IMG/VR virus record: IMGVR_UViG_2541047826_000010
Length of the DNA: 34,194 nt
Direction: 5' to 3' (one strand)
Source of the DNA: a virus
Lineage: Duplodnaviria; Heunggongvirae; Uroviricota; Caudoviricetes
Shown: piece by piece, positions 12,013 to 31,858 of the stretch
How positions within the stretch are numbered: the first letter of the stretch is position 1
How the letters are laid out: every line of letters begins with the position of its first letter
Position numbers and translations under genes: made by a program
Notes under the pieces: model-generated
Told to the model about the DNA's origin: nothing
Database searches by the model: none
Seen by the model: only the letters and a program-made list of their open reading frames with translations

Positions 12013-12073
12013 ATCGTATTCTCCTCTGTGAATAATTCATCGTTTATCCTGCACATCCCGTATCCCCGGCTCT

Positions 12074-12092
12074 CTTAACGCGCTTTAAAATC
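12074..12092 (+). promoter_or_regulatory. late-promoter motif copy 1 (CTTAA-N5-TTTAAAATC), upstream of the lysis genes
   Basis: One of four copies of YTTAA-N5-WTTAAWATC. The embedded -10-like hexamer TAAAAT lies at 12086-12091. There is no -35 match. It ends 50 nt before the holin ATG. Confidence 0.45.
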
Positions 12093-12142
12093 CTTCGCAC
12101 CCTGTATTTGTGATGCTGTCTCCACCAGATAAGGAGACACAC

Positions 12143-12493
12143 ATGAAAAACCTGAAAAAATTCATTCCCCCTGTTAAAAAACCTCGCCTCAGCGGCTGGC
12201 TGCTGACCTCAGTGCTGTTGCTGGGCACCATCGCTCTGGTCTCACCACAGCAGCTGCCTGTTGTGATCTACAAGCTGGCACTCATCACGCTGGCAGCAGT
12301 GCTGGGTTACTGGCTTGACCGTTCGCTCTTCCCCAAAGCCCGTCCCGGTCAGTACCTGAAACATGACGACAGGCTGATGGCTGAAGGGCGTTTCCCGGTA
12401 CAGACCGGCCTTCACCTGGTGTTTTCTGCTGCGTTAATCCGCCGTGCACTGATTGTTGCAGCGGTCTGCCTGGCTGTTGCGATGGGGCTTTAA
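12143..12493 (+). CDS. holin (2-3 TM class, putative)
   Basis: I chose the ATG at 12143 because it follows AAGGAG. The 116-aa product has three hydrophobic segments. It lies immediately upstream of the endolysin. Confidence 0.6.
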   Translation: MKNLKKFIPPVKKPRLSGWLLTSVLLLGTIALVSPQQLPVVIYKLALITLAAVLGYWLDRSLFPKARPGQYLKHDDRLMAEGRFPVQTGLHLVFSAALIRRALIVAAVCLAVAMGL

Positions 12494-12495
12494 TC

Positions 12496-13236
12496 ATGAA
12501 CTGGCCGCAGATCACCTGGATTGTATGCATGTCCCTGAAACTGGCTTTCGAAGCCTTTCGGGTCTTCATCAGAACCGAACGCCTGTCAGTCCGCGCCGGG
12601 ACCTTTCTGGTTCATATGGCATGGGTATTCTTTGTCGCAATGTTGCTCTGGTGTGGCGGCTTTTTTAGCCAGGCATGCGCAGCACAACCTCCGCAGGCTG
12701 CGCTGCAGTATCGCGATGATGTGATCCGTAATGCCCGGCTTGAATGGGGACTGTCTGCGCCGGTGGCCGATTTCGCCGCGCAACTGCATCAGGAAAGCGG
12801 CTGGCGACCTGATGCGATCTCGCCGGCTGGCGCTCAGGGACTGGCGCAGTTCATGCCTGCCACTGCCGACTGGATAAGCCAGTTGATACCGATGCTGAGC
12901 AGTCGTGAGCCGTTTAATCCGGCATGGGCTATCCGGGCGCTGGTCAGCTATGACCGCTGGCTGTGGCAGCGTGTCAGCGCCGCCAGTGACTGCGAGCGTA
13001 TGGCCATGACACTGTCGGGCTATAACGGTGGTCTGGGCTGGGTACAACGGGACAGGCGGCTTGCATCACAGAAAGGTCTGGACAGCACCCGCTGGTTCGG
13101 ACATGTCGCCACGGTGAATGCCGGACGCAATGCGGCCAGCTGGCGGGAGAACCGCCATTATCCGCAGCGCATCCTGCGCGAACTGGCACCGCGATATCTC
13201 ACATGGGGAGGCAGCAGTTGTGTGGCATCTGGTTAA
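12496..13236 (+). CDS. lytic transglycosylase (SLT family) endolysin with N-terminal hydrophobic signal/anchor
   Basis: Family-1 LT motifs are HQESGW (catalytic E-S), GAQGLAQFMP and SGYNGG. The N-terminal hydrophobic stretch MAWVFFVAMLLWCGGFFSQACA is present. The start codon is uncertain (12496 or the internal ATG at 12616). Confidence 0.85.
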   Translation: MNWPQITWIVCMSLKLAFEAFRVFIRTERLSVRAGTFLVHMAWVFFVAMLLWCGGFFSQACAAQPPQAALQYRDDVIRNARLEWGLSAPVADFAAQLHQESGWRPDAISPAGAQGLAQFMPATADWISQLIPMLSSREPFNPAWAIRALVSYDRWLWQRVSAASDCERMAMTLSGYNGGLGWVQRDRRLASQKGLDSTRWFGHVATVNAGRNAASWRENRHYPQRILRELAPRYLTWGGSSCVASG

Positions 13237-13870
13237 AAAGCTGCCGTGGCGCGGCATTCTGCTGGCCATTCTTATCAATGCCTTTCTGGTCGGCCTGTAT
13301 GCCATGGGATACAGAAGTGGTCATGACTCTGCAAAGCGTGACGGTGATACCGCGCTCAGTCAGTTGCAGTCAGCATTTGACGCGTACAAAACGGAGCAGG
13401 CAACGCTTGAGAATGCTGCGCTGCGGGCCTGGGCCAGACGGTATCAGGAGCAGGTGGCCGCCGGGCAGCGGGCTGAAGCCGGTTATCTTGAGCAGATTGC
13501 TCAACTGGAGAGCCGGAATAAACAACTACAGGGGCAAATTAACGATGTCACACAGCGCTGGATTGATGAAAAAGGTAAGAGCCATCCCATTGAGTGCGTG
13601 TTTACTCGCGGTTTCGTGCGCCAGTACAACGCCGCACTCGGATATGACAACGCATCCGTCGACACCGGTCATTCAGACTCAGTTGCCGCCGCTGGCACCC
13701 GCTCTGGCACAGCGACCGGGCAACCTGAAACCACTGACACCCGGTTACGCGATTCGGGTGTCTCCCAGCGTGACGTTCTCGCCAACATCATCGACAACGC
13801 AGGACAATGTCGTCGCTGGCGGAACCAGATAAACGCGTTACTGGATGAACGGGAAGGATTACAGAAATGA
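13220..13870 (+). CDS. i-spanin (Rz-like)
   Basis: The GTG at 13220 follows GGGGAGG. N-terminal TM RGILLAILINAFLVGLYAMGY, then a coiled coil. Lies within ORF 13118..13870. Confidence 0.75.
   Translation: MWHLVKKLPWRGILLAILINAFLVGLYAMGYRSGHDSAKRDGDTALSQLQSAFDAYKTEQATLENAALRAWARRYQEQVAAGQRAEAGYLEQIAQLESRNKQLQGQINDVTQRWIDEKGKSHPIECVFTRGFVRQYNAALGYDNASVDTGHSDSVAAAGTRSGTATGQPETTDTRLRDSGVSQRDVLANIIDNAGQCRRWRNQINALLDEREGLQK
13566..13832 (+). CDS. o-spanin (Rz1-like lipoprotein) embedded in the +1 frame of Rz
   Basis: The product begins MKKVRAIPLSACLLAVSC with a lipobox-like Cys. The mature part is proline-rich. The gene lies entirely inside the Rz gene (part of ORF 13203..13832). Confidence 0.7.
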   Translation: MKKVRAIPLSACLLAVSCASTTPHSDMTTHPSTPVIQTQLPPLAPALAQRPGNLKPLTPGYAIRVSPSVTFSPTSSTTQDNVVAGGTR

Positions 13871-14193
13871 CACTGCAGGTTGAATTCTGGACGGTGGTGA
13901 GTTTTCTGCTCACCTTCATGGGGTTTGTGGGAGGGCTCGCCAAATGGTTGTTCAGTAAAACAGAAGAACGCCAGGCGGCACGATTCGCCTCCCTTGAACA
14001 GGCCCTGCAACAATCCGCCTCCAACTGGGGCGAGCTGGAAAAAGAATTTATGCGATTTAAAGCGGATTTACCGCTGAATTATGTCCGTCGAGAGGATTAT
14101 ATCCGTGGCCAGACAGTCATTGAGGCCAAACTGGACGCGCTTTATAACAAACTGGAAGTGGTACAGCAGTACCGCAATACCGGAGGTCAATAA
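13867..14193 (+). CDS. membrane-anchored coiled-coil late protein (hypothetical)
   Basis: 108 aa. ATGA overlap with the Rz stop. N-terminal TM FWTVVSFLLTFMGFVGGL. Confidence 0.6.
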   Translation: MTLQVEFWTVVSFLLTFMGFVGGLAKWLFSKTEERQAARFASLEQALQQSASNWGELEKEFMRFKADLPLNYVRREDYIRGQTVIEAKLDALYNKLEVVQQYRNTGGQ

Positions 14194-14504
14194 TGGTCGA
14201 TATTACCCGGGTACGCCGCGAATCCCTGCGCTGGAGTCTGCTGGTTGCCCTGAACAAGACCCGCCCTTACACCGCCAGCGAGACGCTGCTGCTGGATGTG
14301 TCCCGTGCCATCTACCCGGACACCACACCGCTGGAACTGCGCCGCGAACTGGATTATCTGGCTGACCGTAAAATGGTTGATCTGGAGAAAAAACCTTCTG
14401 GCGACTGGTTTGCTGACCTGACCCGCCTCGGCGTAGACCTGGTGGAATACACCGTGGAATGTGGTCCGGGTATTGCCCGCCCGGAAAAGTACTGGAGTGA
14501 ATAA
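14193..14504 (+). CDS. hypothetical late protein
   Basis: 103 aa. TAATG overlaps at both ends. I recognise no family. Confidence 0.55.
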   Translation: MVDITRVRRESLRWSLLVALNKTRPYTASETLLLDVSRAIYPDTTPLELRRELDYLADRKMVDLEKKPSGDWFADLTRLGVDLVEYTVECGPGIARPEKYWSE

Positions 14505-15049
14505 TGGCCAGACGCAGCACAATAGAAAAGCTGCCGGAAGATGTGCGCCGCTGGCTTGAACGGGCGCTGACTGAATCCGGCTTCAGCGGGTATAACGAGC
14601 TGGAGTCCCTGCTGCGTGAGCGGGGGTACGTCATCAGCAAATCCGCTATCCATCGCTATGGACAGAAGATTGAGCGCCGCTATGGTGCTATCCGTGCGGC
14701 AACAGAAGCGGCCCGCATGCTGACCGAAGGCGCAGCAGACGATCAGGATGCGCGTTCGGAGGCTGTGATAGCCCTTATTCAGACCGAGCTGTTCGAGAGT
14801 ATTGTCCAGTTGCAGGAGGCGGAAGAAGGCGAAGTCGATCCTAAAGAACGCGTGGCCCTGCTGTCGAAGGTGGCGAAGAATGTGGCTACGCTGTCCCGCG
14901 CGTCCGTCAACCTCAAAAAGTTCCAGTCTGAAGTACGGGCCAGAGCGCAGCAGGCAGCCAGCAACGCCGAGAAAATTGCCCGTAAGGGGGGACTGTCAAG
15001 CGACGCAGTACAGGCGCTTCGTCGCGAGATTCTGGGGATTGCCACATGA
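14504..15049 (+). CDS. terminase small subunit (Mu gp27 / DUF3486-like)
   Basis: The N-terminus RRSTIEKLPEDVRRWLERALTESGFSGYNELESLLRERGYVISKSAIHRYG is typical of the Mu gp27 family. Lies directly upstream of the large terminase. Confidence 0.7.
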   Translation: MARRSTIEKLPEDVRRWLERALTESGFSGYNELESLLRERGYVISKSAIHRYGQKIERRYGAIRAATEAARMLTEGAADDQDARSEAVIALIQTELFESIVQLQEAEEGEVDPKERVALLSKVAKNVATLSRASVNLKKFQSEVRARAQQAASNAEKIARKGGLSSDAVQALRREILGIAT

Positions 15050-16641
15050 CAAAATCATCCGGAGTGATTTTAAACGCCGCTGGCGGTGGCCCCGAAGGGA
15101 TGAGTCCCATGGACGGGAGGAATAACCTTGCTCCCGTTTTGCCTGATACCTCGGCGCTGGATGCTCCTCCCGTTCTGTTGCCTTACCAGCAGCGCTGGGT
15201 GGCAGACACCTCTCCGCTTAAGGTGATAGAAAAGAGCCGTCGTACCGGTATTACATGGGCTGAGGCATCCGATAACGTACTGACCGCCGCCTCTTCTGCG
15301 CCAGCAGGCGGGATGAATGTGTATTACATCGCTTATAACCAGGACATGACCGTCGAATACATTCAGGCGTGTGCGATGTGGGCACGGGCATTCAACTATG
15401 CGGCCAGTGAAATTGAAGAAGGATTCTGGGAAGAGGACGACGACGACAAACACATCAGGACTTACACCATCAAATTTCCTGACTCCGGCTTTCGTATTGT
15501 TGCGCTCTCCAGCCGCCCGTCTAACCTGCGTGGCCGTCAGGGTATTATTGTTATCGACGAAGCGGCGTTCCATGAGCAACTGGACGAACTGCTGAAAGCG
15601 GCGCTGGCGATGCTTATCTGGGGGGGAAAGGTACGCGTTATCTCCACCCATGACGGTGACGACAATCCGTTCAATACGCTTATCGGGGATATCCGTGCCG
15701 GACGTCAGGGAGGCAGCATACATCGCATCACTTTCCGGGAAGCCGTATCTGAGGGGCTGTTCCGGCGCGTCTGTCTGCGCACCGGGAAGGAATGGTCGGA
15801 GGCATCCGAGCAGGCCTGGATGGCATCGGTGTACAAATTCTACGGTGCCGGCGCATCCGAAGAGCTTGACTGTATTCCGGCCAACGGTGGCGGTGCCTGG
15901 CTGTCCCGTGCCCTGATAGAGTCCCGCATGTCCGCTGATACGCCGGTATTGCGTCTGACCTGCAAGGAAGGTTATGAACTGCTGTCTGATGAGGTTCGCT
16001 TCCGCGAGACGCAGGACTGGCTTGATGAGTATCTGAAACCCTTGCTGGAGGCACTCCCCACTGATGCCCGCTCTTTCCTGGGGCGCGACTTTGGCCGTAG
16101 CGGTGATTTGTCGGTGGACTATCCCCTGCTGCAGGAGAAGAACCTGGTACGACGCGTGCCATTCGTACTGGAGCTGCGTAACGTGCCGTTCAGACAGCAG
16201 GAGCAAATCACCTGGTATCTGATGGATGGCCTGCCCGGTCTGCTGGGTGCAGCGTTTGATGCCCGTGGTAATGGTGCCTATCTGGCTGAATACGCCATGC
16301 AGCGCTACGGCTCCGGCCGGGTTCAGCAGGTGATGCCAACCGAAGGCTGGTACCGGGAGCATATGCCTCCGGTCAAAGCTGCACTGGAAGACGGTAACCT
16401 GGTGGACTTACCAAAGGATGAAGACACACTGGATGACCTGCGGGCCGTTCAGGTGGTGAACGGTGTCCCCCGCGTACCGGAGCAACGCTCAAAAGCAAAG
16501 GCTGACGGTGGTAAACGCCACGGGGATTCAGCCATCGCACTGGCGCTGGCGTATTTCGCCAGCCGTGAAATTAACAAAGGGCCGGTGAAGGCAAGCTCAC
16601 GCCGTCGTCGTCAGGCGGCCCGTATGCTGGAGGGATTCTGA
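15046..16641 (+). CDS. terminase large subunit (Mu gp28-like)
   Basis: 531 aa. Walker-B-like GIIVIDEAAFHE. Size and position (between the small terminase and the portal) fit. ATGA overlap upstream. Confidence 0.85.
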   Translation: MTKSSGVILNAAGGGPEGMSPMDGRNNLAPVLPDTSALDAPPVLLPYQQRWVADTSPLKVIEKSRRTGITWAEASDNVLTAASSAPAGGMNVYYIAYNQDMTVEYIQACAMWARAFNYAASEIEEGFWEEDDDDKHIRTYTIKFPDSGFRIVALSSRPSNLRGRQGIIVIDEAAFHEQLDELLKAALAMLIWGGKVRVISTHDGDDNPFNTLIGDIRAGRQGGSIHRITFREAVSEGLFRRVCLRTGKEWSEASEQAWMASVYKFYGAGASEELDCIPANGGGAWLSRALIESRMSADTPVLRLTCKEGYELLSDEVRFRETQDWLDEYLKPLLEALPTDARSFLGRDFGRSGDLSVDYPLLQEKNLVRRVPFVLELRNVPFRQQEQITWYLMDGLPGLLGAAFDARGNGAYLAEYAMQRYGSGRVQQVMPTEGWYREHMPPVKAALEDGNLVDLPKDEDTLDDLRAVQVVNGVPRVPEQRSKAKADGGKRHGDSAIALALAYFASREINKGPVKASSRRRRQAARMLEGF

Positions 16642-18137
16642 TGGCGAGGGGTATCTGGGTTTCACCCGATGAATTTGTTGCTTTTTCTGAGCCTCAGAAA
16701 TCACTGACCGCGCAGATTGCCTCCCGCAGCCGCGCGATCGACTTTTACGGACTGGGCATGTATCTGCCCAATCCTGATCCCATTCTCAAGGCTCAGGGAC
16801 GGGATATCCGTATCTACCGCGAACTGCGCACCGACCCGCTGGTTGGGGGCTGTATCCGCAGACGTAAAGCAGCGCTCAAATCACTGGAGCGTGGACTGGA
16901 GCGCGGTCACGCTTCTGCCCGGGTCTTCCGTTTCATCCGCGACATGCTCGACGATCTGGATCTGTCCCGCATCATCGGTGAGATGAGTGATGCCGTGCTC
17001 TACGGGTATCAGCCCTGTGAAATCATGTGGGGCCGTTCGGTCAGGGCGTGGGCAGTGACGGATATTGTCGGCAAACCGCCTGAGTGGTTTCAGTTTGATA
17101 CGGACAACTGCCTGCGCTTCCGGGCGCGTGATGCGGGTGTGGAGGGTGAGCTGCTGTCACCGTCAAAATTCGTGGTGCCGGCACAGGATGCCTCGTATGA
17201 CAATCCTTACGGTTTCCCGGACCTGTCCATGTGCTTCTGGCCGGTCGCCTTCAAGAAAGGCGGGATGAAATTCTGGCTCCGCTTTGCCGAAAAGTTTGGC
17301 TCCCCGTGGGTGATCGGTAAGCACCCGAGGGGTGCAAATGATGCAGAGATTGAAAAACTGCTGGACTCCATGGAGCAGATGGTGGAGGACGCGGTGGCCA
17401 CCATCCCCGATGACAGCAGCATCGAACTCAAAGCCGCGGATGGTAAGGCGGACAGCAGCGAGGTATTCCGCGAGCTGATCACACTGTCACGCAGTGAGAT
17501 CTCCATTGCATTACTTGGTCAGAATCAGACCACGGAAGCGAACAGTAACAAGGCCTCTGCACAGGCCGGGCTGGAGGTAACGGCTGATATCCGCGATGCG
17601 GATGCGGACATCATTCAGGCAGCAGTGAATCAGGTTATCAGAACGGTGGTCACCCTGAACTTCGGCGATGTGCCGTGTCCGGTCTGGGCCATGTGGGAAC
17701 AGGAGACCATTGATGACACCCGCGCCACCCGCGACGAAAAACTCACCCGGGCGGGTCTGCGTCTGACCCCGCAATACTTTAAGCGTGAGTACCAACTGCA
17801 GGACGGCGATATTGACGAGACATCACCGTCGGAACGCCAGAATAACATGCTGCCGCTGTCATTTGCCGAGGCGATTGATGCCGATATTCAGGCTCAGCAG
17901 CAGCTTGACGACGCGCTGGACATTCTGATGAACGGAGGTGTGTTAAATGGCACGCTGGAACCCGTCCTGGCACCTCTGTTTAAGCGGGTCGAAAACGGGG
18001 TTAACCCGACTGAGCTGCTGGGCGAACTGGCGGAGCTCTACCCTCAGATGAACACGGACGATCTGCAGGAACGGCTGGCCCGTATTCTCTTTGTGGCAAA
18101 TATCCGGGGACGTCTGCATGAGCGTGACAACGGCTGA
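16641..18137 (+). CDS. portal protein (Mu gp29 / DUF935-like)
   Basis: 498 aa. Follows the terminase with a TGATG overlap. Precedes the MuF-like gene. Confidence 0.85.
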   Translation: MARGIWVSPDEFVAFSEPQKSLTAQIASRSRAIDFYGLGMYLPNPDPILKAQGRDIRIYRELRTDPLVGGCIRRRKAALKSLERGLERGHASARVFRFIRDMLDDLDLSRIIGEMSDAVLYGYQPCEIMWGRSVRAWAVTDIVGKPPEWFQFDTDNCLRFRARDAGVEGELLSPSKFVVPAQDASYDNPYGFPDLSMCFWPVAFKKGGMKFWLRFAEKFGSPWVIGKHPRGANDAEIEKLLDSMEQMVEDAVATIPDDSSIELKAADGKADSSEVFRELITLSRSEISIALLGQNQTTEANSNKASAQAGLEVTADIRDADADIIQAAVNQVIRTVVTLNFGDVPCPVWAMWEQETIDDTRATRDEKLTRAGLRLTPQYFKREYQLQDGDIDETSPSERQNNMLPLSFAEAIDADIQAQQQLDDALDILMNGGVLNGTLEPVLAPLFKRVENGVNPTELLGELAELYPQMNTDDLQERLARILFVANIRGRLHERDNG

Positions 18138-18939
18138 ACTGGCGTACTGCATGACGCTTCCCCCGAAGCGGGCAGTCAGTTACCTGAAGTCCAAAGGGTA
18201 TCAGATTACCTGGGACTGGGAAGAAATGTGGCAGGAGGCCCATGCCCGCGCCTTTACCGTTGCTAAAGTGACCCGCCTGGATATCCTGGAAGATATTCGC
18301 GGGGCACTGCAGCAGGCTGTCGATGAAGGAAAAACCGATCGCTGGTTCCGGCAGGAGCTGGAGCCGGTGCTGAAGCGTAAGGGATGGTGGGGACCACGTG
18401 ACACGACTGACCCGGTAACGGGTAAGCCGGTCACCATTCAGCAGGGCAGTCCGTGGCGGCTCGATACCATCTTTCGCACCAATATGTCCGTACTCTACAG
18501 CGCCGGTCGTTGGGCGGAACAGATGGAAAACGTCGACGACAGGCCGTACTGGATGTATACCGGCATCAACGACAGCCATACCCGCAGGAGCCATCTGGCG
18601 CTGCATGGTCTGGTGCTGCGCTGGGATGACCCGTTCTGGCAGGCATTTTACCCGCCGAACGGCTGGCGCTGCCGCTGTAGTGTGATTGCCCTGAGTGCGG
18701 CGGATGTCCGTGCCCGTGGCCTGAAGGTTATCAGCTCCGGCTCTGCCATGGGCCAGGAACTGAAACTGGTCTCAGAGAAAACCGGCGAAATGCGGAACGT
18801 GGCCACCTTTAATACCGGCACCACGAAGGTGACCACCGACGTCGGCTGGTCTTATGCACCGGGGGCAGCATACCGTCCCGACCTGGCCCGCTATCAGGGT
18901 ACGCTTCAGCCACTGGCACAACAGGAACTGAGAGGATAA
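18118..18939 (+). CDS. head morphogenesis protein, Mu F (gp30) family
   Basis: Signature ...HTRRSHLALHG...PPNGWRCRCSV. The ATG at 18118 is chosen within ORF 18091..18939. Confidence 0.9.
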   Translation: MSVTTAELAYCMTLPPKRAVSYLKSKGYQITWDWEEMWQEAHARAFTVAKVTRLDILEDIRGALQQAVDEGKTDRWFRQELEPVLKRKGWWGPRDTTDPVTGKPVTIQQGSPWRLDTIFRTNMSVLYSAGRWAEQMENVDDRPYWMYTGINDSHTRRSHLALHGLVLRWDDPFWQAFYPPNGWRCRCSVIALSAADVRARGLKVISSGSAMGQELKLVSEKTGEMRNVATFNTGTTKVTTDVGWSYAPGAAYRPDLARYQGTLQPLAQQELRG

Positions 18940-18941
18940 CA

Positions 18942-19400
18942 ATGGCTTCCGATAACCTGGTCAGTATCACCATTAACGATAAATCCCTGCGCCGGAGCCT
19001 CCGTGCGCTGGATCTTGCTGCCACAGACCTGGAGCCCGCGATGCGCAAAATCGCCGGAACCCTGCTGGCGGAAACACAGTTTAACTTTCTTGATGAGGGG
19101 CGTCCGGGGTGGATCCCCTCGCTGGCAGCGGAAGAACGTGACGGGCAGACACTGCAGGATACCGGGCGTCTGATGGGGTCAGTATCAACCGACCATGACG
19201 ACCGGCAGGCTGTTGTGGGGACCAACGTTGTTTACGGTGCCATTCACCAGTTCGGGGGTAAAACGGGGCGTAATGAGTCTGTTGAACTTCCGGCCCGCCC
19301 GTTCCTGCCGGTGACGGGGGATGGAGAACTACAGCCTGAAGTGGTAATCCCCATCCTCGATACCATTGTCCGCCATCTTGAATCAGCGGCCCGTCGCTGA
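18942..19400 (+). CDS. virion morphogenesis protein (Mu G family)
   Basis: 152 aa. NVVYGAIHQFGG...ARPFL is typical of Mu G-like proteins. Confidence 0.8.
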   Translation: MASDNLVSITINDKSLRRSLRALDLAATDLEPAMRKIAGTLLAETQFNFLDEGRPGWIPSLAAEERDGQTLQDTGRLMGSVSTDHDDRQAVVGTNVVYGAIHQFGGKTGRNESVELPARPFLPVTGDGELQPEVVIPILDTIVRHLESAARR

Positions 19401-19443
19401 GTTTTCTCTCTTCAGGCGGGTGATTTATCATTGCCAGCGAATG

Positions 19444-19487
19444 AGGGGCTGTATTACCTTTATAAAGGCTTTACAGCCTCTGTTTTA
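19444..19487 (+). terminator. compound hairpin plus T-tract after gene G
   Basis: GGCTGTA (19447-19453) pairs with TACAGCC (19472-19478). These arms enclose the perfect palindrome CCTTTATAAAGG. TCTGTTTTA follows. Confidence 0.5.
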
Positions 19488-19540
19488 TAACCGCCTCCGG
19501 TTCACCGCATTGCTTTCCCTGTCCTTCTCCCCTGATGTTT

Positions 19541-19559
19541 TCTAAAGCAGATTAAAATC
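19541..19559 (+). promoter_or_regulatory. late-promoter motif copy 2 (TCTAA-N5-ATTAAAATC), upstream of the head protease gene
   Basis: Same spacing as the other copies. -10-like TAAAAT lies at 19553-19558. It ends 55 nt before the ATG at 19615. Confidence 0.4.
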
Positions 19560-19614
19560 GCCGGGCCTGCATTTCTCACAAACTGTCTCCGACAACATAA
19601 CGCGGGACAGCAAA

Positions 19615-20730: not shown

Positions 20731-20744
20731 TTTAAGGAGAGAGC

Positions 20745-21698: not shown

Positions 21699-21707
21699 GG
21701 AGGCGTT

Positions 21708-22046: not shown

Positions 22047-22047
22047 C

Positions 22048-22958: not shown

Positions 22959-23209
22959 TGAAAGAATACCGCTATTCCGGCCCGGCCAGCGGCGTCACGC
23001 TGTCGGACGGAACCGAAATCCTGCTCTGGCCGGGGAAGACGGTTTCCCTGCCGGAGGAGCATGACTACGTGAAGGTACTGGTGGCGCTGAAACATCTGAC
23101 GCCGGTACCTGAAGAGACTAAACCCGCCGGCACACCGGCTGTGCAGTCACCAAAGCGCAGAAGCAGCAGTGACAGCGAAGTGAAAACGGAGGACACCCAT
23201 GGCAGCTAA
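22958..23209 (+). CDS. small late protein (Mu gp38-like position)
   Basis: 83 aa from the ATG at 22958, with a TGATG overlap and GAGGAA 8 nt upstream. A GTG at 22955 is an alternative start. Confidence 0.5.
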   Translation: MKEYRYSGPASGVTLSDGTEILLWPGKTVSLPEEHDYVKVLVALKHLTPVPEETKPAGTPAVQSPKRRSSSDSEVKTEDTHGS

Positions 23210-24626: not shown

Positions 24627-25147
24627 TGTCAAAGATTGAGATAAACCGCATCACGAATGCCAACATCTATCTGGATGGTACTAACCTGCTGGGACGGGCT
24701 GAGGAAGTTAAACTCCCCGATGTCTCCATGATTATGCAGGAACACAAGGCGCTGGGGATGGTGGGTAAGGTGGAACTCCCGGCTGGTTTTGACAAACTGG
24801 AAGGCGAAATCAAATGGAACAGCTTTTACCGCGATGCGATGCTGTCTGCCGCGAACCCGTACAGGTCGCTGGCACTGCAGTGTCGTTCCAGCGTCCAGCG
24901 CTACAGCTCGCAGGGGCTGATTGACGAAATCCCGCTGGTCACCTTCCTGACGATTATGTTCAAGAAGAACCCGCTGGGGACGTTCAAACAGCACGAGAAC
25001 GCCGAGTTCTCCAGTAGCTTCACCTGCACGTATATCAGACAGGTACTGGATGGTGAAGAGCTGCTGCAACTGGACTATCTGGCCAACATCTTCCGGGTCG
25101 GCGGTGTTGATCAACTGACTGACTACCGTATCAATATCGGGGGCTGA
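24626..25147 (+). CDS. tail tube protein (P2 FII-like)
   Basis: 173 aa. ITNANIYLDGTNLLGRAEEVKLPD... matches the pattern of the P2 tube family. Confidence 0.85.
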   Translation: MSKIEINRITNANIYLDGTNLLGRAEEVKLPDVSMIMQEHKALGMVGKVELPAGFDKLEGEIKWNSFYRDAMLSAANPYRSLALQCRSSVQRYSSQGLIDEIPLVTFLTIMFKKNPLGTFKQHENAEFSSSFTCTYIRQVLDGEELLQLDYLANIFRVGGVDQLTDYRINIGG

Positions 25148-25149
25148 CG

Positions 25150-25431
25150 GTGAGTGTTGAACTGACGGATAAAGGAGGACGATGTGCGGCACTGGGCATG
25201 TCAAATGGTACGTGGTTTACCCTCCTTGATATTCCGGGGGTGGAAACCCTTTTTAATACCCGTAAAACCAATGACCCGATTGACTGCACACGTTCAAAGG
25301 CCCGCAAACTGGCGGATTTGATTGAAGCATGGGAGCCTCCCGACCACTGGTTCTCCGGCATCGGCAAATCTGAGGGAAAGACGCTTCTCATCGCTTTCCT
25401 GCGTAACTGCAAGGGGTTTCGCACTTGCTGA
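25150..25431 (+). CDS. hypothetical protein inserted between the tube and chaperone genes (moron-like)
   Basis: 93 aa. GTG start 2 nt after the tube stop. I recognise no family. Followed by its own hairpin terminator. Confidence 0.5.
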   Translation: MSVELTDKGGRCAALGMSNGTWFTLLDIPGVETLFNTRKTNDPIDCTRSKARKLADLIEAWEPPDHWFSGIGKSEGKTLLIAFLRNCKGFRTC

Positions 25432-25437
25432 CATCAC

Positions 25438-25462
25438 AGGGGCTCCGGCCCCTTCTTCTTAA
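25438..25462 (+). terminator. hairpin AGGGGC-TCCG-GCCCCT followed by a T-rich run
   Basis: 6-bp GC-rich stem and 4-nt loop, then TCTTCTTAATCTCCTTT. Begins 7 nt after the stop at 25431. Confidence 0.5.
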
Positions 25463-25476
25463 TCTCCTTTAATATC
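25458..25476 (+). promoter_or_regulatory. late-promoter motif copy 3 (CTTAA-N5-TTTAATATC), upstream of the tail chaperone gene
   Basis: -10-like TAATAT lies at 25470-25475. The 22-nt window 25455-25476 matches 31806-31827 at 20 of 22 positions. It ends 52 nt before the ATG at 25529. Confidence 0.45.
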
Positions 25477-25528
25477 CGTCACGCGCTTCTCCCGACATAC
25501 TGCCCTGAACTTACACAGGAGCACAATC

Positions 25529-25864
25529 ATGTCACAGACCCCATCCGATACTTTTAAATTGTCTTATCCCTTCACCACTGCTGCAGGCACCAGAATTGAG
25601 CTGGTTGAACTGAAACGCCTGACGGTAAAAGACCTGAAGCAGGTGCGCAAAATCAGCAAAAACCCGGCAGACTGGGACGAACCGCTGATTGCCCGCAGTA
25701 CTGGTCTTCTCCCGGAAGATCTCGACAATATGGATCTGGCTGATTACCTGCAGTTACAGAAACGATTTCAGCTCATCACGGGGATGGGTGAGAGCAACCA
25801 GGGCGCTGACGCAGGCGCAGGGGCTGCTGGCGAGATGGTTCCGGTTTCAGCCGGGGGAGATTGA
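25529..25864 (+). CDS. tail assembly chaperone (P2 gpE-like)
   Basis: 111 aa. Lies between the tube and tape-measure genes. An overlapping downstream-frame ORF is present. Confidence 0.75.
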   Translation: MSQTPSDTFKLSYPFTTAAGTRIELVELKRLTVKDLKQVRKISKNPADWDEPLIARSTGLLPEDLDNMDLADYLQLQKRFQLITGMGESNQGADAGAGAAGEMVPVSAGGD

Positions 25865-25946
25865 TGCCCTCGATACTGACGATCTGGAGATGTGGCTGGA
25901 GCAGGCTGAAGAGCAAATAAAAAGCGAGTACGGCGACAAATCATAG
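25529..25946 (+). CDS. frameshifted tail chaperone (E+E'-like fusion; shift into the +1 frame around 25820-25824)
   Basis: ORF 25689..25946 is offset +1 from 25529. Its C-terminal part WFRFQPGEIDALDTDDLEMWLEQAEEQ aligns with the FHWxPSE...L..W.E.A signature I recall for the GpE (E') family. A GGGG run lies at 25820-25823. Confidence 0.55.
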
Positions 25947-25951
25947 TACAG

Positions 25952-25972
25952 ACAGCCGCCAGTAGCGGCTGT
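25952..25972 (+). terminator. stem-loop ACAGCCGC-CAGTA-GCGGCTGT after the E' stop (weak terminator or mRNA stabiliser)
   Basis: Perfect 8-bp stem. The downstream tract TCTGCGTT is only weakly T-rich. Confidence 0.3.
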
Positions 25973-26021
25973 TCTGCGTTATCCCCTCACGTCTTTTCAC
26001 CTTCCCCGGAGGTTAACCACT

Positions 26022-28973
26022 ATGTCGGGACAGTTTTCAGTCGGCGTTGTTATCGGCGGGATGATTGGTAGCACATTCCGTTCTGCAATGAGCGGTACCC
26101 GCCGTGCGCTTGATTCCCTGAGCGATACCTCACGCCGCCTGCAGGAACGTCAGAACGCTTTAACCCGTGCAACAGAACGTTATGGTCAACTGGGTTCTTC
26201 CCGGATGCAGCATCTCAACAGCGAGCTGCTGCGGGTAAGCCGCACCATGGAGCAAATTGAGCGCCAGCAGCGCCGTCTGTCAGCGGCATCCGCTACCAGT
26301 GATGCGCTGAAAGCTAACCGCATGGCGCTGTATGGTCAGGGGATTGAAGCGTATGGCATGGCACAGACTGTTTATCATACGGTTTCCCCTGCCGTTCAGC
26401 AGTCCATGTCTTTTCAGGACAAAATGATTGATATGTCGATCACCGCAAAATATGACAATAAAACGCGGGATGCACTTGCCGGACAGATAAAAGGCTGGGC
26501 GCTTAAATACAATCAGTATCAGGATGAGCTGCAGGAGGCGGTGGGTTCACTCATCAGCGACAATATTGATAATGTGTCAGATATCGGTTTTCTGATGCCG
26601 GATATTGCCCGCGCGGCAACGGCAACACGCACGTCTGCTCAGGACTGGGCAAAAGTGGCCGCAGTCTGGCAAAACTCCCTGAAAGGTGCGGCCAGAGATT
26701 TTGGTGCCGTTCAGAATATTATGGCTTATGCCGGTGACCAGGGGTCATTTGAAATCCCGGATCAGGTCAAGTGGATGCAGTCCCTGGCCCCAATGATGGC
26801 GGGTATTGCCAGTGGAAAAGAGGCTGTTGCTGAAATCGGGGCCAGTCTCCAGATAGCAAAAATCGGTGCAGGTTCCACCGACGAAGCAGCCAATAATTTT
26901 AAAAACTTTCTTACCAAAATTTTTGCCCGCGATACTCAGAAACAGTTTGCTGATCTGGGTATTGATTTGCAGGGATCTATTGCGAGTTATAAAGCTGCGG
27001 GGATCTCTCCGATTGAAGGGATGTTGAGTGTTATAGAACGTTACCTCAATGCCAAAAGCCCCGAAGCGCTGGCCGGCTTCAAATCAGCCATGAAAATAAA
27101 GAATGATACGGCAAGAGATGAGGCACTTCAGGCTCTGGCGAAAAACTTTGGTCTGGGCGATATGTTCGCGGATATGCAGGTCATGGCATTTATCCGCCCG
27201 ATGCTGGCCAACATGGACAGATATCGAGAGATCCGTGCCGGTGCTCTCAGGGCTGCGGATAACGATTTGCTTGCCAGTGCTTATGATCAGCGGCTGAAAT
27301 CTCCCCTTGAAGCCACTAAAGCACTTATGGTCAGCAGTCGTGATCTGGCAATTACGCTGGGCGATCAATTAGCTCCATCTTTTATTTCTCTGACTCAGGA
27401 ACTGCTTCCACTCATTCAGGGGGCAAAACACTGGGTAGCGACTCACCCGCAATTTGTCAGTGGGGCTTTTAAGCTCATCAGTGCGCTCCTTGCGATTAAG
27501 ATAGCGACTGTTGGTCTCAAACTGGGGCTGAATCTCCTTATTTCCCCCTTTGTAAGTGTCTGGAAAAATGCTGTTTTACTTCGGGCCAACTGGCTTCGTC
27601 TGTCGCTCGCACTGGGGCAAGGCGGTAAGCTCCGCTGGCTGGTGACCGGATTTAGCGCCGTCGCCAAAGGAGCCAGAACACTGAGTGGCGTGCTCTCCGG
27701 GGGGCTGGTTCGCGGAATTATGCTCGCCGGACGTGCTGTTCTCTGGATTGGACGTGCGCTGATGATGAATCCCATCGGTCTCGTTATCACCGCTGTCGCG
27801 GCAGCAGCTTACCTTATCTACCGCAACTGGGGGGCAGTCAGTGGCTGGTTTAAACAGCGCTGGGCAGACATTCAGGAAGCCTTTAACGGCGGCATTGTGG
27901 GAATTGGTAAGTTGCTGATTAACTGGTCGCCGGCAGGCCTGCTCTATAAAGCCTTTGCGGCTGCGCTGAAATATTTCGGCGTTGCTCTGCCGGCAAAGTT
28001 CACCGACTTCGGTGGCCATCTTATCGACGGTCTGATTAACGGTATCAAAAACAAATGGGGGTCGCTCAAATCCAGTGTAACCGGAATGGGTGACAGCATC
28101 AGTAGCTGGTTTAAACAGTGCTGGGCTGACATTCAGGAAGCCTTTAACGGCGGTATCGCGGGAACTGGTAAGCTGCTGATTAACTGGTCGCCGGCAGGTC
28201 TGCTCTATAAAGCCTTTGCAGCTGCGCTGAAATATCTTGGTGTTGATCTGCCGGCAAAGTTCACCGACTTCGGTGGCCATCTTGTCGACGGTCTGATTAA
28301 CGGTATCAAAAACAAATGGGAGTCGCTCAAATCCAGTGTAACCGGAATGGGTGACAGCATCAGTGGCTGGTTCAGCGAAAAGCTGGGCATTCATTCGCCG
28401 AGCCGCGTGTTTATGGGCTTTGGTGACAATATCGCGCAGGGGGCCGCCATTGGCCTGCAGCGGACCACTCCGCTTGCAGCTCTGGCCGGGCAGCGAATGG
28501 CCAGTGAACTGCTCCCCAAAATGCCCGTGAGCATTCAGGGGCCAGAAATACGGGATAACACTTCAGGTGTTCGCTTCAGTATGCCGTTGCCCGATATCAA
28601 TGGGTTTATGTCGTCTGCTAAAAATGCGATCGGAGCCGTAATCAATAGTTTGTCTTCCATGCCCGCTATTCCGCTCTCCACCCGGGCATCGATTTTACCA
28701 GGGCAACGTCTGGCAAATGAGATGACACCGGATGTTCCCCGTATCCCCTCGCCTGAAATCCTGGCTGCCGGATATTCAGGCCGTGGTGCAGCTGCAACCG
28801 GCGGTGGAACGTCTGGTGGTATCCAGGTCAGCTTTAATCCTCAGTTTTTCCTCAATGGCAGGGAAACCACAGCGCCTGCCGGACTGACTGGCGCCCTGAA
28901 TATGAGCCTGCATGAGCTGGAAAAAATGCTGGAGCGTCTGCTGGCTCAGAAACAACGTAAGGAGTACCGCTGA
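26022..28973 (+). CDS. tail tape measure protein
   Basis: 983 aa. Position after the chaperone pair. Long helical and hydrophobic central region. SD GGAGG. Confidence 0.9.
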   Translation: MSGQFSVGVVIGGMIGSTFRSAMSGTRRALDSLSDTSRRLQERQNALTRATERYGQLGSSRMQHLNSELLRVSRTMEQIERQQRRLSAASATSDALKANRMALYGQGIEAYGMAQTVYHTVSPAVQQSMSFQDKMIDMSITAKYDNKTRDALAGQIKGWALKYNQYQDELQEAVGSLISDNIDNVSDIGFLMPDIARAATATRTSAQDWAKVAAVWQNSLKGAARDFGAVQNIMAYAGDQGSFEIPDQVKWMQSLAPMMAGIASGKEAVAEIGASLQIAKIGAGSTDEAANNFKNFLTKIFARDTQKQFADLGIDLQGSIASYKAAGISPIEGMLSVIERYLNAKSPEALAGFKSAMKIKNDTARDEALQALAKNFGLGDMFADMQVMAFIRPMLANMDRYREIRAGALRAADNDLLASAYDQRLKSPLEATKALMVSSRDLAITLGDQLAPSFISLTQELLPLIQGAKHWVATHPQFVSGAFKLISALLAIKIATVGLKLGLNLLISPFVSVWKNAVLLRANWLRLSLALGQGGKLRWLVTGFSAVAKGARTLSGVLSGGLVRGIMLAGRAVLWIGRALMMNPIGLVITAVAAAAYLIYRNWGAVSGWFKQRWADIQEAFNGGIVGIGKLLINWSPAGLLYKAFAAALKYFGVALPAKFTDFGGHLIDGLINGIKNKWGSLKSSVTGMGDSISSWFKQCWADIQEAFNGGIAGTGKLLINWSPAGLLYKAFAAALKYLGVDLPAKFTDFGGHLVDGLINGIKNKWESLKSSVTGMGDSISGWFSEKLGIHSPSRVFMGFGDNIAQGAAIGLQRTTPLAALAGQRMASELLPKMPVSIQGPEIRDNTSGVRFSMPLPDINGFMSSAKNAIGAVINSLSSMPAIPLSTRASILPGQRLANEMTPDVPRIPSPEILAAGYSGRGAAATGGGTSGGIQVSFNPQFFLNGRETTAPAGLTGALNMSLHELEKMLERLLAQKQRKEYR
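27846..28367 (+). repeat. in-frame tandem duplication, 2 x 261 bp (87 aa), inside the tape-measure gene
   Basis: Copy 1 is 27846-28106 and copy 2 is 28107-28367. My hand alignment gives about 16 mismatches in 261 nt and 8 of 87 aa differences. Both copies begin WFKQ(R/C)WADIQEAFNGG. Confidence 0.9.
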
Positions 28974-29857
28974 TGTTTGCCGTACTGGGTGATATTGAGT
29001 TTGAGCTGATTACCTACTGGGACGGCTTCGAGGCCACGTTCGGCGTCGATTATGCGGAGCATGCCCGCATCGGGGGTAAGCCTGGCCTGCAGTTCGTCGG
29101 CGACAGGCTGGACGAAATCCAGATAACTCTGGTTTTCCATCAGCATTATTGTGTACCCGATGTGGAGCTGGCGAGACTGCGAACAGCCATGAAAGCCCAT
29201 CAGGCACTGGCGCTGGTCTTCGGCAACGGTGACTATCGTGGCTGGTTCGTGATTACCGATGTGACCGCAACCAGCGAGCAGACAGACAGCACCGGTAACG
29301 TGCTGGCTGTCAGTGCCACCGTGTCTCTCCGGGAATACACCGGTGATCCGAAAAATCCTCTGCAACCACCGGCAATACGCACGAAGCTCCCGGGTGTCGG
29401 GGCGGTCTCCGGTGCCATTCCTTCACCTTCAGGGGTGGCGCAGTTCATCCGCAACGGCGTCAACTATGCGAAACAGGCGCAGTCTGTACTCCAGACCACT
29501 ATCAGCGCCGTTCGGGTGACACAGAAAATGAAGGATAACCCCGTTGTCGCACTGACCCGTGTGCCGGGGCTGATGAGCGGACTGGGTAATATCTCCGGGG
29601 CTCTGGGGAAAAGTGTTCCGGCGTTTAACGCACTCTCTGAATCCATGCCCGATGCCATCAGTCTGGCCAGAACAGCCAGCGAAGCAGCCACGTATGTACA
29701 GCAGGCACAGTCTGCGCTGAGTGGTGTGGACAAAAGAAATATTGCAGGTGCTCTGGATACCGTTTCCGGGCAGCTTAACGCCGCCGGCACAGCATTCAAC
29801 CGCATGTCTCCGGGATTAAGTGCAATGGCCGCCAGAATACTGACGAGGAGTGTGTGA
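28973..29857 (+). CDS. tail protein, P2 gpU-like N-terminal domain with a long C-terminal extension
   Basis: The N-terminal ~130 aa (LGDIEFELI...IGGKPGLQFVGDRLDEIQITLVFH) resemble gpU. About 160 further Ala/Ser/Gly-rich residues follow. Confidence 0.8.
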   Translation: MFAVLGDIEFELITYWDGFEATFGVDYAEHARIGGKPGLQFVGDRLDEIQITLVFHQHYCVPDVELARLRTAMKAHQALALVFGNGDYRGWFVITDVTATSEQTDSTGNVLAVSATVSLREYTGDPKNPLQPPAIRTKLPGVGAVSGAIPSPSGVAQFIRNGVNYAKQAQSVLQTTISAVRVTQKMKDNPVVALTRVPGLMSGLGNISGALGKSVPAFNALSESMPDAISLARTASEAATYVQQAQSALSGVDKRNIAGALDTVSGQLNAAGTAFNRMSPGLSAMAARILTRSV

Positions 29858-30069
29858 TGTTTCTTGAACATGTTACCCGTGACGGAGAGCGCTGGGATTC
29901 GCTGGCATGGCAGTACTACGGTGACCCGCTGGGCTATCCCCGGATTATTGCCGCCAATCCGCACGTGGCCATCACGCCGGTGCTGCCCTCCGGGCTGTTG
30001 TTACTGATCCCGGTGATTGAGACTGAAGAAGCCCGTACAGAAGAGGATATTGCCCCATGGCTGAGATAA
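29857..30069 (+). CDS. tail protein X (P2 gpX-like, LysM-type)
   Basis: The ATG at 29857 has a TGATG overlap and follows GAGGAG by 6 nt. GERWDSLAWQYYGDP...IIAANP...LPSGLLLLIP resembles P2 gpX. Confidence 0.8.
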   Translation: MFLEHVTRDGERWDSLAWQYYGDPLGYPRIIAANPHVAITPVLPSGLLLLIPVIETEEARTEEDIAPWLR

Positions 30070-31211
30070 ACAGCACTGCGCAAGTCACATCAGCGTTAAC
30101 CGGCGTCAGCGATGTGCTGACACCGGTGTTCACTCTGTGGTATCTGCAGAAAAACATCACCTCTGATATCGCGCCTTATGTCACCCGTGTGACCTGGAGC
30201 GATAACATCAAAAATGAGTCCGATACCATTGAGGTGGAGCTGGACGACACCGATGGCCGCTGGCTGGATAAGTGGTATCCGGGCAAGGGTGACACGCTGA
30301 CGCTGAAAATGGGCTATCAGGGCGAGAAGCTGCTGTCCTGCGGTACGTTCTCTATAGACGAGATCGAAGTGAGTTCGCCCGCTTCCGTTGTTTCTATCCG
30401 TGGGGTGGCCACCTCGGTTAACAGTGCTCTGCGGACTAAATCCAGCCGTGGTTTTGAGAACACCACGCTGGCAGCTGTTGCGGGGCGGATTGCCAGAAAG
30501 CACCGGCTGAAACTGGTGGGCAGCATTGAGTCCATCAGAATCGACCGGGTGACCCAGTATGCTGAAACCGACGTGGGTTTTCTGCGCCGGCTGGCCAGCG
30601 AGTATGGTTATGCAGTGAAAGTGGTCAGTGACCAGCTGATTTTTTCTCATCTGGCCACACTGCGCAGTCAGGAGACGGTCAGGCAGTTAAAACCGCAGGA
30701 TGTGGCCCGCTTTTCCCTGCGTGACACCATCAACCGGGTCTATAAATCTGCAAAGGTAAAACACCAGAAAAGCAGCAGTAAAAAACTGATCGTCCACGAA
30801 GCTGATGGTGGTACCCGTGAAAGCGACAAAAAGCTCAAAGGTGGTAAGGTTACCAGCGCTGACTCACTTAAAGTTAACAGCCGCGTCAGCGACCCGGACA
30901 GTGCCCGGATTAAAGCGGATTCAGCACTGGCCAGACATAACGAATACCAGCAGAACGGCTCCCTGACGCTGACGGGAACACCTCAACTGACAGCAGGCAA
31001 CAAAATTGAACTGGTGGGTTTTGGGCAGTTATCCGGGCCATGGCTCATAACCACTGCCCGCCATGCGTTTGACCGTAACAGCGGCTACACCACAGAGCTG
31101 GAAGTGGCACGGGGGCCAGTCACAAGAGGGAAAAAACAAAAAACTCAGAAACTCACGGTTTATCACCCGGATGGCAGTACATCGACGGTGATTAAGGAGA
31201 AGAAAAAATGA
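30057..31211 (+). CDS. tail/baseplate hub protein (P2 gpD-like)
   Basis: 384 aa. Size and position (after U and X, before V) match gpD. The C-terminal region ...GPWLITTARHAFDRNSGYTTELE is typical. Confidence 0.85.
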   Translation: MAEINSTAQVTSALTGVSDVLTPVFTLWYLQKNITSDIAPYVTRVTWSDNIKNESDTIEVELDDTDGRWLDKWYPGKGDTLTLKMGYQGEKLLSCGTFSIDEIEVSSPASVVSIRGVATSVNSALRTKSSRGFENTTLAAVAGRIARKHRLKLVGSIESIRIDRVTQYAETDVGFLRRLASEYGYAVKVVSDQLIFSHLATLRSQETVRQLKPQDVARFSLRDTINRVYKSAKVKHQKSSSKKLIVHEADGGTRESDKKLKGGKVTSADSLKVNSRVSDPDSARIKADSALARHNEYQQNGSLTLTGTPQLTAGNKIELVGFGQLSGPWLITTARHAFDRNSGYTTELEVARGPVTRGKKQKTQKLTVYHPDGSTSTVIKEKKK

Positions 31212-31804
31212 CTGGTGTCACTCGTCAGGTCGGTACGGTCAGTGCCGTTGATGCCGACAGGGTTCAGGCCCGCGTTCGTCTGCCTGAATGCGATAACCTG
31301 CGCACAAACTGGCTTAACGTGCTGCAGCGTAATACCCAGGATAACAAAGATTACTGGCTCCCTGACGTGGGGGAGCAGGTTGAGGTGCTGCTCGATGCCA
31401 ACGGCGAGGATGGTGTTATTCTGGGCGCGGTGTATTCAGACGTCGATAAACCACCGTTCAGTGACAAAAATATCCGGGGAACCCGGTTTGCTGATGGTGC
31501 AGAGTACAGCTACAACCGGAAGACGCACACTCTGACCATCCGGGGCGGCATTGAGCATATTGTCATTGAGTGTGGTGCTGATGTGGTATTGAAAACACAG
31601 AAAGCCACGATTGACGCACCGGAAACCGAACTTACCGGAGATCTGCGTGTCAGGGGAAAGCTGATTTACGAAGGAGGCATGGCGGGTTCTGGTGGTAAAG
31701 GTGTTACCGCGACCATCCATGGCAATATCGAGATTAAAGGGAATGCCCATGCCACGGGCAGTATGCTGTCTGATGGCGAAAACTCCAGCCACCACTCCCA
31801 CTGA
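31208..31804 (+). CDS. baseplate central spike (P2 gpV-like)
   Basis: 198 aa. GTVSAVDADRVQARVRLPECDNLRTNWLNVLQ...PDVGEQVEVL is typical of gpV. The C-terminus ends SSHHSH. Confidence 0.85.
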   Translation: MTGVTRQVGTVSAVDADRVQARVRLPECDNLRTNWLNVLQRNTQDNKDYWLPDVGEQVEVLLDANGEDGVILGAVYSDVDKPPFSDKNIRGTRFADGAEYSYNRKTHTLTIRGGIEHIVIECGADVVLKTQKATIDAPETELTGDLRVRGKLIYEGGMAGSGGKGVTATIHGNIEIKGNAHATGSMLSDGENSSHHSH

Positions 31805-31808
31805 GCTT

Positions 31809-31827
31809 CTTAAACGCCTTTAATATC
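31809..31827 (+). promoter_or_regulatory. late-promoter motif copy 4 (CTTAA-N5-TTTAATATC), upstream of the baseplate genes
   Basis: -10-like TAATAT lies at 31821-31826. It ends 31 nt before the ATG at 31859. Confidence 0.45.
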
Positions 31828-31840
31828 AGCGTTCCCGCAC

Positions 31841-31858
31841 GGGGGCAATACTGCCCCC
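31841..31858 (+). promoter_or_regulatory. GC-rich stem-loop GGGGGCA-ATAC-TGCCCCC directly abutting the gpW start codon
   Basis: Perfect 7-bp stem and 4-nt loop. The ATG at 31859 follows the last paired base. The only purine-rich SD candidate (GGGGG) lies inside the stem. Confidence 0.6.

Follow-up and report, generated by a model that had tools for sequence, protein, structure and literature searches.

The DNA analysed here, a stretch of 34,194 nucleotides (nt) filed as IMG/VR virus record IMGVR_UViG_2541047826_000010 and called the window in the following, carries a Mu-like, BcepMu-type transposable prophage of Escherichia coli. The gene order of the window is that of BcepMu, and its late arm shows 98.9% identity to Escherichia phage PhiKM (classified as Bcepmuvirus) and 86% identity to a contig filed under the name Klebsiella phage KP12. 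A leftward early operon on the minus strand ends with gemA followed by a gene of the Mor family, and a repressor-like helix-turn-helix gene at 9382 is directed rightward. The late arm, also rightward, comprises the holin, lysis, terminase and portal genes, F and G, followed by I, capsid, sheath and tube, then the chaperone gene and the tape measure gene through V, and finally W, J, I and H. The subject of this study is a 19-nt motif, YTTAA-N5-WTTAAWATC, which precedes the first genes of four modules of this late arm and which an earlier note had read as marking four late promoters.

When up to one mismatch was allowed, the motif was found four times in the window, always on the plus strand (at 12074, at 19541 with one mismatch, at 25458 and at 31809), and not a single match occurred in 100 dinucleotide-preserving shuffles. 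As the earlier note had described, the internal spacing is the same in all copies, and the last two are identical at 20 of 22 positions when 25455-25476 is compared with 31806-31827. Box P1 (CTTAACGCGCTTTAAAATC, 12074-12092) lies upstream of the holin gene, box P2 (TCTAAAGCAGATTAAAATC, 19541-19559) upstream of the protease/scaffold gene I, box P3 (CTTAATCTCCTTTAATATC, 25458-25476) upstream of the gene for the tail assembly chaperone, a Pfam Phage_TAC_7 match, and box P4 (CTTAAACGCCTTTAATATC, 31809-31827) upstream of the baseplate gene W; among the four, box P2 is nearest in sequence to the box of the Mu promoter Pm. The boxes occupy the gaps 12013-12142, 19401-19614, 25432-25528 and 31805-31858. 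No intergenic gap of the late arm is larger than these four, in agreement with the earlier description, and the one further gap above 50 nt (25865-26021) is covered by the frameshift extension of the chaperone gene.

A search of both strands of the window revealed no fifth site. The octamer TTAAWAKC occurs four times on the minus strand (27472, 15073, 4132 and 2273), each time with the upstream half-site absent. A composite weight matrix, built from relatives and comprising the box and a downstream hexamer described below, gave 34-44 bits for the four sites; no other position of the two strands exceeded -0.7, and 50 shuffles reached 9.4 at best. Because the matrix was built from homologues of these four sites, it gives them no independent significance and serves to exclude a fifth.

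Terminator-like hairpins on the plus strand precede two of the boxes, as had been claimed before. The first, with a U tract, follows gene G at 19444-19489 (stem 19444-19481, followed by UGUUUUAU; -21.3 kcal/mol, z -3.05), and the second spans 25438-25457 (stem 25438-25453; -12.8 kcal/mol) and has a U-rich tail that runs into box P3. Scanning the plus strand of the four gaps for a canonical -35/-10 pair gave no match, which bears out the earlier observation that a -35 element is missing; the sole consensus -35/-10 match near a gap lies on the minus strand at 19621-19594.

Box, hexamer and their counterparts in Mu

About 160 related loci, namely 80 viral contigs and 80 loci from named genomes, were compared with the window. 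The viral contigs were fetched by a capsid query (capsid identity 63-100%), and the upstream regions of the homologues of the four first genes were extracted from them. Phylogenetic footprinting revealed the same two conserved islands at every promoter of the viral loci, the box and a hexamer of the form nAnnCT. The conserved form of the box is nTAA-N6-TTAAWAKC, with its second half better conserved than its first. In every relative exactly 19 nt lie between the box and the hexamer, which is usually followed by G; its second position is A and its sixth position is T throughout, while the sequence of the 19-nt spacer diverges freely. In the relatives we found neither a conserved block upstream of the box nor another conserved -10 between box and hexamer. 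The hexamers read GATGCT, AAAACT, CATGCT or GACACT before the holin gene, CAAACT, CAGACT or GAAACT before gene I, CATACT, GATACT, CAGACT, TAGCCT or TACCGT before the chaperone gene and AATACT or GATACT before the W gene.

The predicted -10 elements of the window, all on the plus strand, are accordingly GATGCT at P1 (12112-12117), CAAACT at P2 (19579-19584), CATACT at P3 (25496-25501) and AATACT at P4 (31847-31852). If +1 is counted as the seventh base beyond the hexamer, transcription would start, to within one or two bases, at 12124 (A), 19591 (G), 25508 (A) and 31859 (A). The start codons of the holin gene, gene I and the chaperone gene lie at 12143, 19615 and 25529, respectively, and the predicted start at P4 coincides with the ATG of gpW. 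A TGn sequence stands before the hexamer in P1 alone and is not kept in the relatives.

The pattern of box and hexamer is also found beyond the closest relatives. BcepMu carries a box, 19 nt and a hexamer before its holin, I and W genes. A regular expression for the composite pattern, applied to the 1.5 Mb of the 80 genome loci, matched 110 times on the gene strand, 8 times on the opposite strand and 12 times in shuffles (both strands), with clusters of matches upstream of the W gene (50) and of the chaperone gene (28). Box types among the relatives include TTAAWAKC, TTTCGTGGG and CCCGGACA-N2-TGTCCGGG. The last is a perfect G+C-rich palindrome that takes the place of the AT-rich box in Alphaproteobacterial relatives (L136, L142, L145, L146, L148, L149 and L153); it lies about 60 nt upstream of W, and the distances of 23 nt to the hexamer and of 6 nt from there to the ATG are kept. 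Such an exchange at constant distance fits a specific activator and suggests co-evolution of activator and operator in a promoter whose geometry stays fixed.

In Mu, the late promoters depend on the protein C for their activation, Mor acting solely at the middle promoter Pm. According to the Mu literature, Pm and the late promoters possess a -10 hexamer and lack a -35 element. At Pm, the dyad bound by Mor extends from -51 to -36 around a centre at -43.5, and the footprint of the protein from -56 to -36 (PMC4287176). The site of C, an imperfect dyad of 16 bp, likewise has its centre at -43.5, and the bases just downstream of it matter as well (PMC2582627). Both proteins are reported in a 2025 preprint to bind as tetramers and to contact the C-terminal domain of the alpha subunit (alpha-CTD), sigma region 4 and the beta flap of RNA polymerase. 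The starts of the C-dependent late promoters were mapped by S1 nuclease.

We took the Pm sequence from the Mu genome and the four Mu late promoters from the oligonucleotide table of PMC4461284 and aligned all of them on the -10 hexamer. In this alignment the boxes of the window and of its relatives are in register with the footprinted Mor site of Pm. The cores compared were GTAAAGCCGATTAA of BcepMu, GTAAAGCCGGTTAA of Mu Pm and CTAAAGCAGATTAA of window P2, those of BcepMu and Mu each lying 23 nt before the -10. The full boxes are acaGTAAAGCCGGTTAAtcc for Mu Pm (-10 TATCCT), atcGTAAAGCCGATTAAaag for BcepMu gene I (-10 GATGAT) and ttTCTAAAGCAGATTAAaat for window P2 (-10 CAAACT), with 23 nt between TTAA and hexamer in all three. 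Matched in register with the core of Mu Pm, the box of BcepMu gene I agrees at 13 of 14 positions and that of window P2 at 11 of 14. In each of the four window sites, as in Mu Pm, 30.5 nt separate the centre of the dyad TAA-N6-TTA from the hexamer downstream; this corresponds to -42.5 or -43.5, depending on whether the predicted +1 is placed 7 or 8 nt after the hexamer. This register identifies the motif as a putative Mor-type operator at approximately -50 to -32, and the AWATC of the motif is the presumed counterpart of the adjacent downstream bases over the -35 region of Mu.

The likeness to Mu Pm thus comprises the core TAA-N6-TTAA, the 23 nt from TTAA to the hexamer, the absence of a -35 element, an nAnnCT-type hexamer followed by G, and an activator gene that stands after gemA at the end of the early operon. 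The two systems differ in the use of the box: in Mu it occurs once and drives the middle operon encoding C, whereas in the window it occurs four times and would drive the late operons for lysis, head, tail and baseplate directly. In Mu it also overlaps the terminator hairpin of the early operon, whereas in the window only box P3 adjoins a terminator. With the C-dependent late promoters of Mu the predicted promoters of the window share their number of four, a -10 without a -35, a 16-bp imperfect dyad near -43.5 with adjacent downstream bases, and a G after the -10 hexamers TAGACT and CAAACT. Mu PI, like P2, precedes gene I, and CAAACT followed by G is identical in the two. The C-dependent promoters differ, however, in having ccATAAcccc and 24 nt before TAGACT, CAAACT, TATCCT or TAAGAT, an offset of 1 nt from the TAA-N6-TTAAWAKC of the window, which resembles the Pm box instead. 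The operon boundaries of Mu lie at lys, I, P and mom and those of the window at holin, I, chaperone and W, the window being devoid of a mom-type promoter.

From the conservation, the geometry and the match to Mu we infer binding by an activator, dependence on it and the sites of initiation. The four repeated motifs most likely mark four late promoters, and dependence of these promoters on an activator, as the earlier note had envisaged, is very probable. With good confidence we propose that the motif, at about -50 to -32, is the operator for the single Mor-family activator of the phage and that it serves four late promoters of the sigma-70 type, each devoid of a -35 element and with its -10 element 19 nt downstream of the motif. 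The operator core would be the imperfect dyad TAA-N6-TTA(A), centred near -43, and the conserved WAKC beside it would overlap the -35 region.

The gpW start codon and the hairpins at P1 to P3

The gene for gpW has no Shine-Dalgarno (SD) sequence, and a discriminator of just 6 nt separates the hexamer AATACT from the ATG at 31859. The coincidence of this ATG with the predicted +1 and the missing SD suggest a leaderless mRNA, as predicted for the gpW transcript. The arrangement was followed in a W set based on an alignment of baseplate J, which drew on the 80 loci from named genomes (L085-L164) and yielded 67 distinct W upstream regions from 78 genomes. A hexamer.A...T exactly 6 nt before the ATG, combined with the absence of an SD, was present in 38 of the 67 regions; the hexamer lay at 7 nt in 2 and at 8 nt in about 9 of them (Pectobacterium, Samsonia). 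Several of the remaining regions were mis-anchored by the open reading frame rule and show the same pattern one ATG downstream. A clear SD was found in 7 of the 67, all distant loci without box and hexamer.

The gpW arrangement is kept in Enterobacterales, Burkholderia, Chromobacterium, Lysobacter and Alphaproteobacteria. Depending on the clade, the W hexamer reads AATACT, GATACT, GACGAT, CACTAT, CAATAT, GAAAAT, CAACAT, CACGAT, CACGCT, GATCAT, CATGGT or CATCCT, and this variation indicates that its position is conserved beyond what the shared ancestry of one sequence would give. At P4 a G+C-rich inverted repeat (31841-31847 / 31852-31858, plus strand) brackets the hexamer, and the same holds for three promoters of BcepMu.

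A start codon of BcepMu (L084, 18849-18864) deserves mention in this context. The annotated start of gp32 at 18850 (MMGAMNAKPL...) falls inside the predicted -10 hexamer GATGAT, and the start homologous to that of the E. coli phage protein is the ATG at 18862 (MNAKPLHIF), 7 nt after the hexamer. The annotated gp32 is probably too long, and its transcript may be leaderless as well.

At P1, P2 and P3 the promoter segment from -8 to -1 can pair with the SD region downstream. The hairpin of P1 (12117-12139) is formed by a 5' arm at 12117-12123 (-7 to -1) and an SD arm at 12133-12139; the anti-SD hairpin of P2 pairs 19583-19593 with 19602-19610; and P3 shows two pairings, 25501-25507 with 25516-25523 and 25494-25498 with 25529-25533, all on the plus strand. 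At P1 and P3 the paired bases reach into the hexamer and the start codon. RNA folding gave -12.3, -10.7 and -12.1 kcal/mol for P1, P2 and P3 when the RNA started upstream, and -0.5, -5.1 and -1.4 kcal/mol, respectively, when it started at the predicted +1 (12124 for P1). Formation of these hairpins would be limited to RNA initiated further upstream. The z values of the hairpins are about -2.8 to -3.9, and T-G pairs (G-U type) occur in them on the plus strand.

The hairpin arrangement recurs in most relatives with stem sequences that differ by clade. In the alignable subset (alignment A1) 92% of the cells were paired and one pair had changed on both sides, a covariation that is not significant, so that the support for the hairpins comes from their recurrence with different stems and from the folding energies. 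RNAalifold returned no consensus structure for the hexamer-to-ATG regions because MAFFT could not align the divergent clades. We take the hairpins to be real, though unproven.

One can speculate that the late promoters double as translational licences. The segment from -8 to -1, untranscribed when initiation occurs at the promoter itself, would then be an anti-SD arm, and only promoter-initiated RNA would expose the ribosome site. We put this forward as a possibility, slightly less probable than its opposite. If it is true, read-through RNA would be translationally silent. Such silencing makes sense for the holin gene, which lies downstream of the rightward repressor-side genes and could receive read-through RNA from them in the lysogen. 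P4 with its leaderless gpW mRNA would then be the extreme of the same logic, extending from Enterobacterales to Burkholderia, Alphaproteobacteria and the carotovoricin-type tailocins.

Alternative readings of the motif

Several observations weigh against the operator assignment. The hexamers match TATAAT weakly, at 3-4 of 6 positions; the relatives share ancestry, so that the counts overstate their independence; the box before the chaperone gene of BcepMu is degenerate; the scores of the weight matrix are circular where the four sites of the window are concerned; and the activator as a whole is about as far from Mu Mor as from Mu C. In addition, the conserved hairpins use the segment from -8 to -1 as one arm, which implies that an RNA containing this segment matters, and the sequence alone is compatible with a start further upstream, to which we assign a low probability.

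The alternative that survives best is built on this last point. It accepts the box as an activator site and regards the downstream block of nAnnCTG and hairpin mainly as an RNA element for translational control or stability, part of a longer 5' leader that starts upstream. The thermodynamic significance of the hairpins, their recurrence with different stems in different clades, their G-U type pairs and the extension of pairing into hexamer and start codon at P1 and P3 would all fit such an element, but formal covariation in the alignable part was not significant. No other -10 is conserved between box and hexamer, and a long leader is hard to reconcile with a gpW hexamer fixed at 6 nt from its ATG and with the missing SD. 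Moreover, CAAACT and TAGACT serve as -10 elements in Mu promoters with mapped starts, which also counts against this reading. We consider this explanation unlikely.

The earlier note had instead placed the -10 inside the motif itself, at TAAAAT or TAATAT; the activator would then bind further upstream, CTTAA would fall in the spacer, and transcripts would begin 6-9 nt after the motif. The two hexamers do match TATAAT at 5 of 6 positions in the phages of the E. coli group, and transcripts from there would include the conserved hairpins with their -8 to -1 segment. The last T of a sigma-70 -10 element is among its most important bases. In many distant relatives, BcepMu among them, this very base is G, TAAAAT reading TAAAAG and the box ending in TAAAAG(A/C), so that TAAWAT is not a conserved -10. 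Nor is there conservation upstream of the motif, where the activator would have to sit, and the nAnnCT hexamer at its fixed distance 19 nt downstream as well as the SD-less gpW would be left unexplained. Finally, what the motif lines up with in Mu Pm is the footprinted Mor site, not the -10. We thus abandon this assignment, which appears very unlikely, and predict starts about 25 nt further downstream, where late start sites should be sought. The earlier note had regarded the absence of 5' ends 6-9 nt after TAAWAT as a refutation; such ends would probably be absent even though the promoters are real.

Binding of the box by another protein (the phage repressor, GemA or a host nucleoid protein) or its action as an AT-rich UP-like element, with the Mor-family protein uninvolved, could be supposed from its base composition and from its placement where UP elements lie, but is highly improbable given the 13 of 14 core positions that BcepMu shares in register with the footprinted Mu Pm site, the co-occurrence of the box with Mor-family genes in the phage family of the window, and the Alphaproteobacterial G+C-rich palindrome, which at the same 23 nt is in keeping with a specific activator co-evolving with its site but not with an AT-rich UP element.

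Two known binding sites were considered and rejected. Phage P2 uses Ogr, a zinc-finger activator with a TGT-N12-ACA dyad near -55 as its site. Ogr of P2 and Delta of phage P4 resemble the system described here in that four activator-dependent late promoters without a -35 stand before homologous tail and baseplate modules. Promoters of the Ogr type were rejected, as we saw no Ogr-type gene and no such dyad in the window and no conserved block upstream of the box, and its activator belongs to the Mor family. A site for integration host factor was rejected by eye, the motif not fitting WATCAA-N4-TTR. Searching the whole window against Rfam at gathering thresholds gave no matches and hence no known RNA family at the sites.

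The candidate activator, the proposed regulatory cascade and related systems

The candidate for the activator of the four putative operators is encoded at 1065-1454 on the minus strand (Pfam Mor PF08765, E 1.3e-43). Its gene closes the leftward early operon directly after gemA, as mor does in Mu, and a search of the window for a second Mor/C paralogue found none. As the sole gene of the Mor/C family in a mor-like position it is the obvious candidate, and here our analysis agrees with the earlier proposal. The protein is 31% identical to Mu Mor and 28% identical to Mu C.

The proposed operator function leads to the following model. By analogy with Mor at Mu Pm, the activator would accumulate at the end of early transcription and, in dimeric or tetrameric form as in Mu, bind to the four boxes. 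It would then recruit RNA polymerase via alpha-CTD and sigma region 4 to promoters with only a weak -10, and the four late operons would be switched on directly in one step, with no separate activator of the C type. The first unit would run from the holin gene through G and end at the terminator 19444-19489, and the second from I through the gene after the tube gene, ending at the terminator 25438-25457. The third would comprise the chaperone gene through V and the fourth W and the genes onward. These predicted units correspond to the four that had been outlined previously. The cascade would have two tiers in the phage of the window as opposed to three in Mu.

Some features outside the promoters were also noted. 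A trehalose-phosphatase (otsB-like) gene at 1-858 on the minus strand is host DNA, which places the left end of the prophage between 858 and 1065 and makes the Mor-family gene its outermost gene. Immediately upstream of P1 lies a gene of 158 amino acids (11536-12012, minus strand) with a weak match to an AAA domain; convergent to the rightward repressor-side genes, it may insulate the lysis cassette from rightward read-through. The PhiKM record PQ738613 (L001) is a permuted, gapped assembly that begins with the late genes and has its tape measure gene interrupted by a sequencing gap, and the KP12 record OM835952 (L002) is filed under Vequintavirinae, yet its contig is a BcepMu-type transposable phage. 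The annotations of both records should be used with care.

The arrangement extends to tailocins. Nine Pectobacterium loci with carotovoricin-type tail clusters each contain three sites of box, 19 nt and hexamer on the gene strand. These clusters include a W gene without SD, in which the hexamer lies 8 nt from the ATG, compared with 6 nt in the window. In the carotovoricin-type clusters of Samsonia and Pectobacterium (L102-L111), which lack head genes, the three sites of each cluster lie at about 420-940, 3540-3730 and 9613. The KP12 homologue of the window activator is annotated as rdgB. RdgB is a Mor-like activator of pectin lyase and carotovoricin, the link to it being drawn from this role and from the annotation. 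The sites of the carotovoricin-type clusters are candidates for RdgB-responsive promoters of the tailocin. Our literature search on BcepMu late promoters, on RdgB with pnlA or carotovoricin promoters and on leaderless baseplate genes found no description of the motif, with the original BcepMu and RdgB papers lying outside its reach; nor did we find the late regulation of BcepMu-type phages and carotovoricin-type clusters described in the searchable literature.

The four predicted promoters provide a testable transcription map for widespread transposable prophages and the tailocins derived from them, of the BcepMu and carotovoricin types. With 110 matches against 8 in 1.5 Mb, the pattern of box and hexamer has the specificity needed for annotating the late operons of related prophages, and probable misannotations of start codons, such as that of BcepMu gp32, are flagged by it. 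Least expected for specialists may be a leaderless gpW and anti-SD arms embedded in promoters. For the family as a whole, our results suggest that the three-tier cascade of Mu, which leads from early transcription via Mor and C to the late genes, was elaborated from a simpler two-tier one, in which an activator of the Mor type acts on Pm-like boxes.

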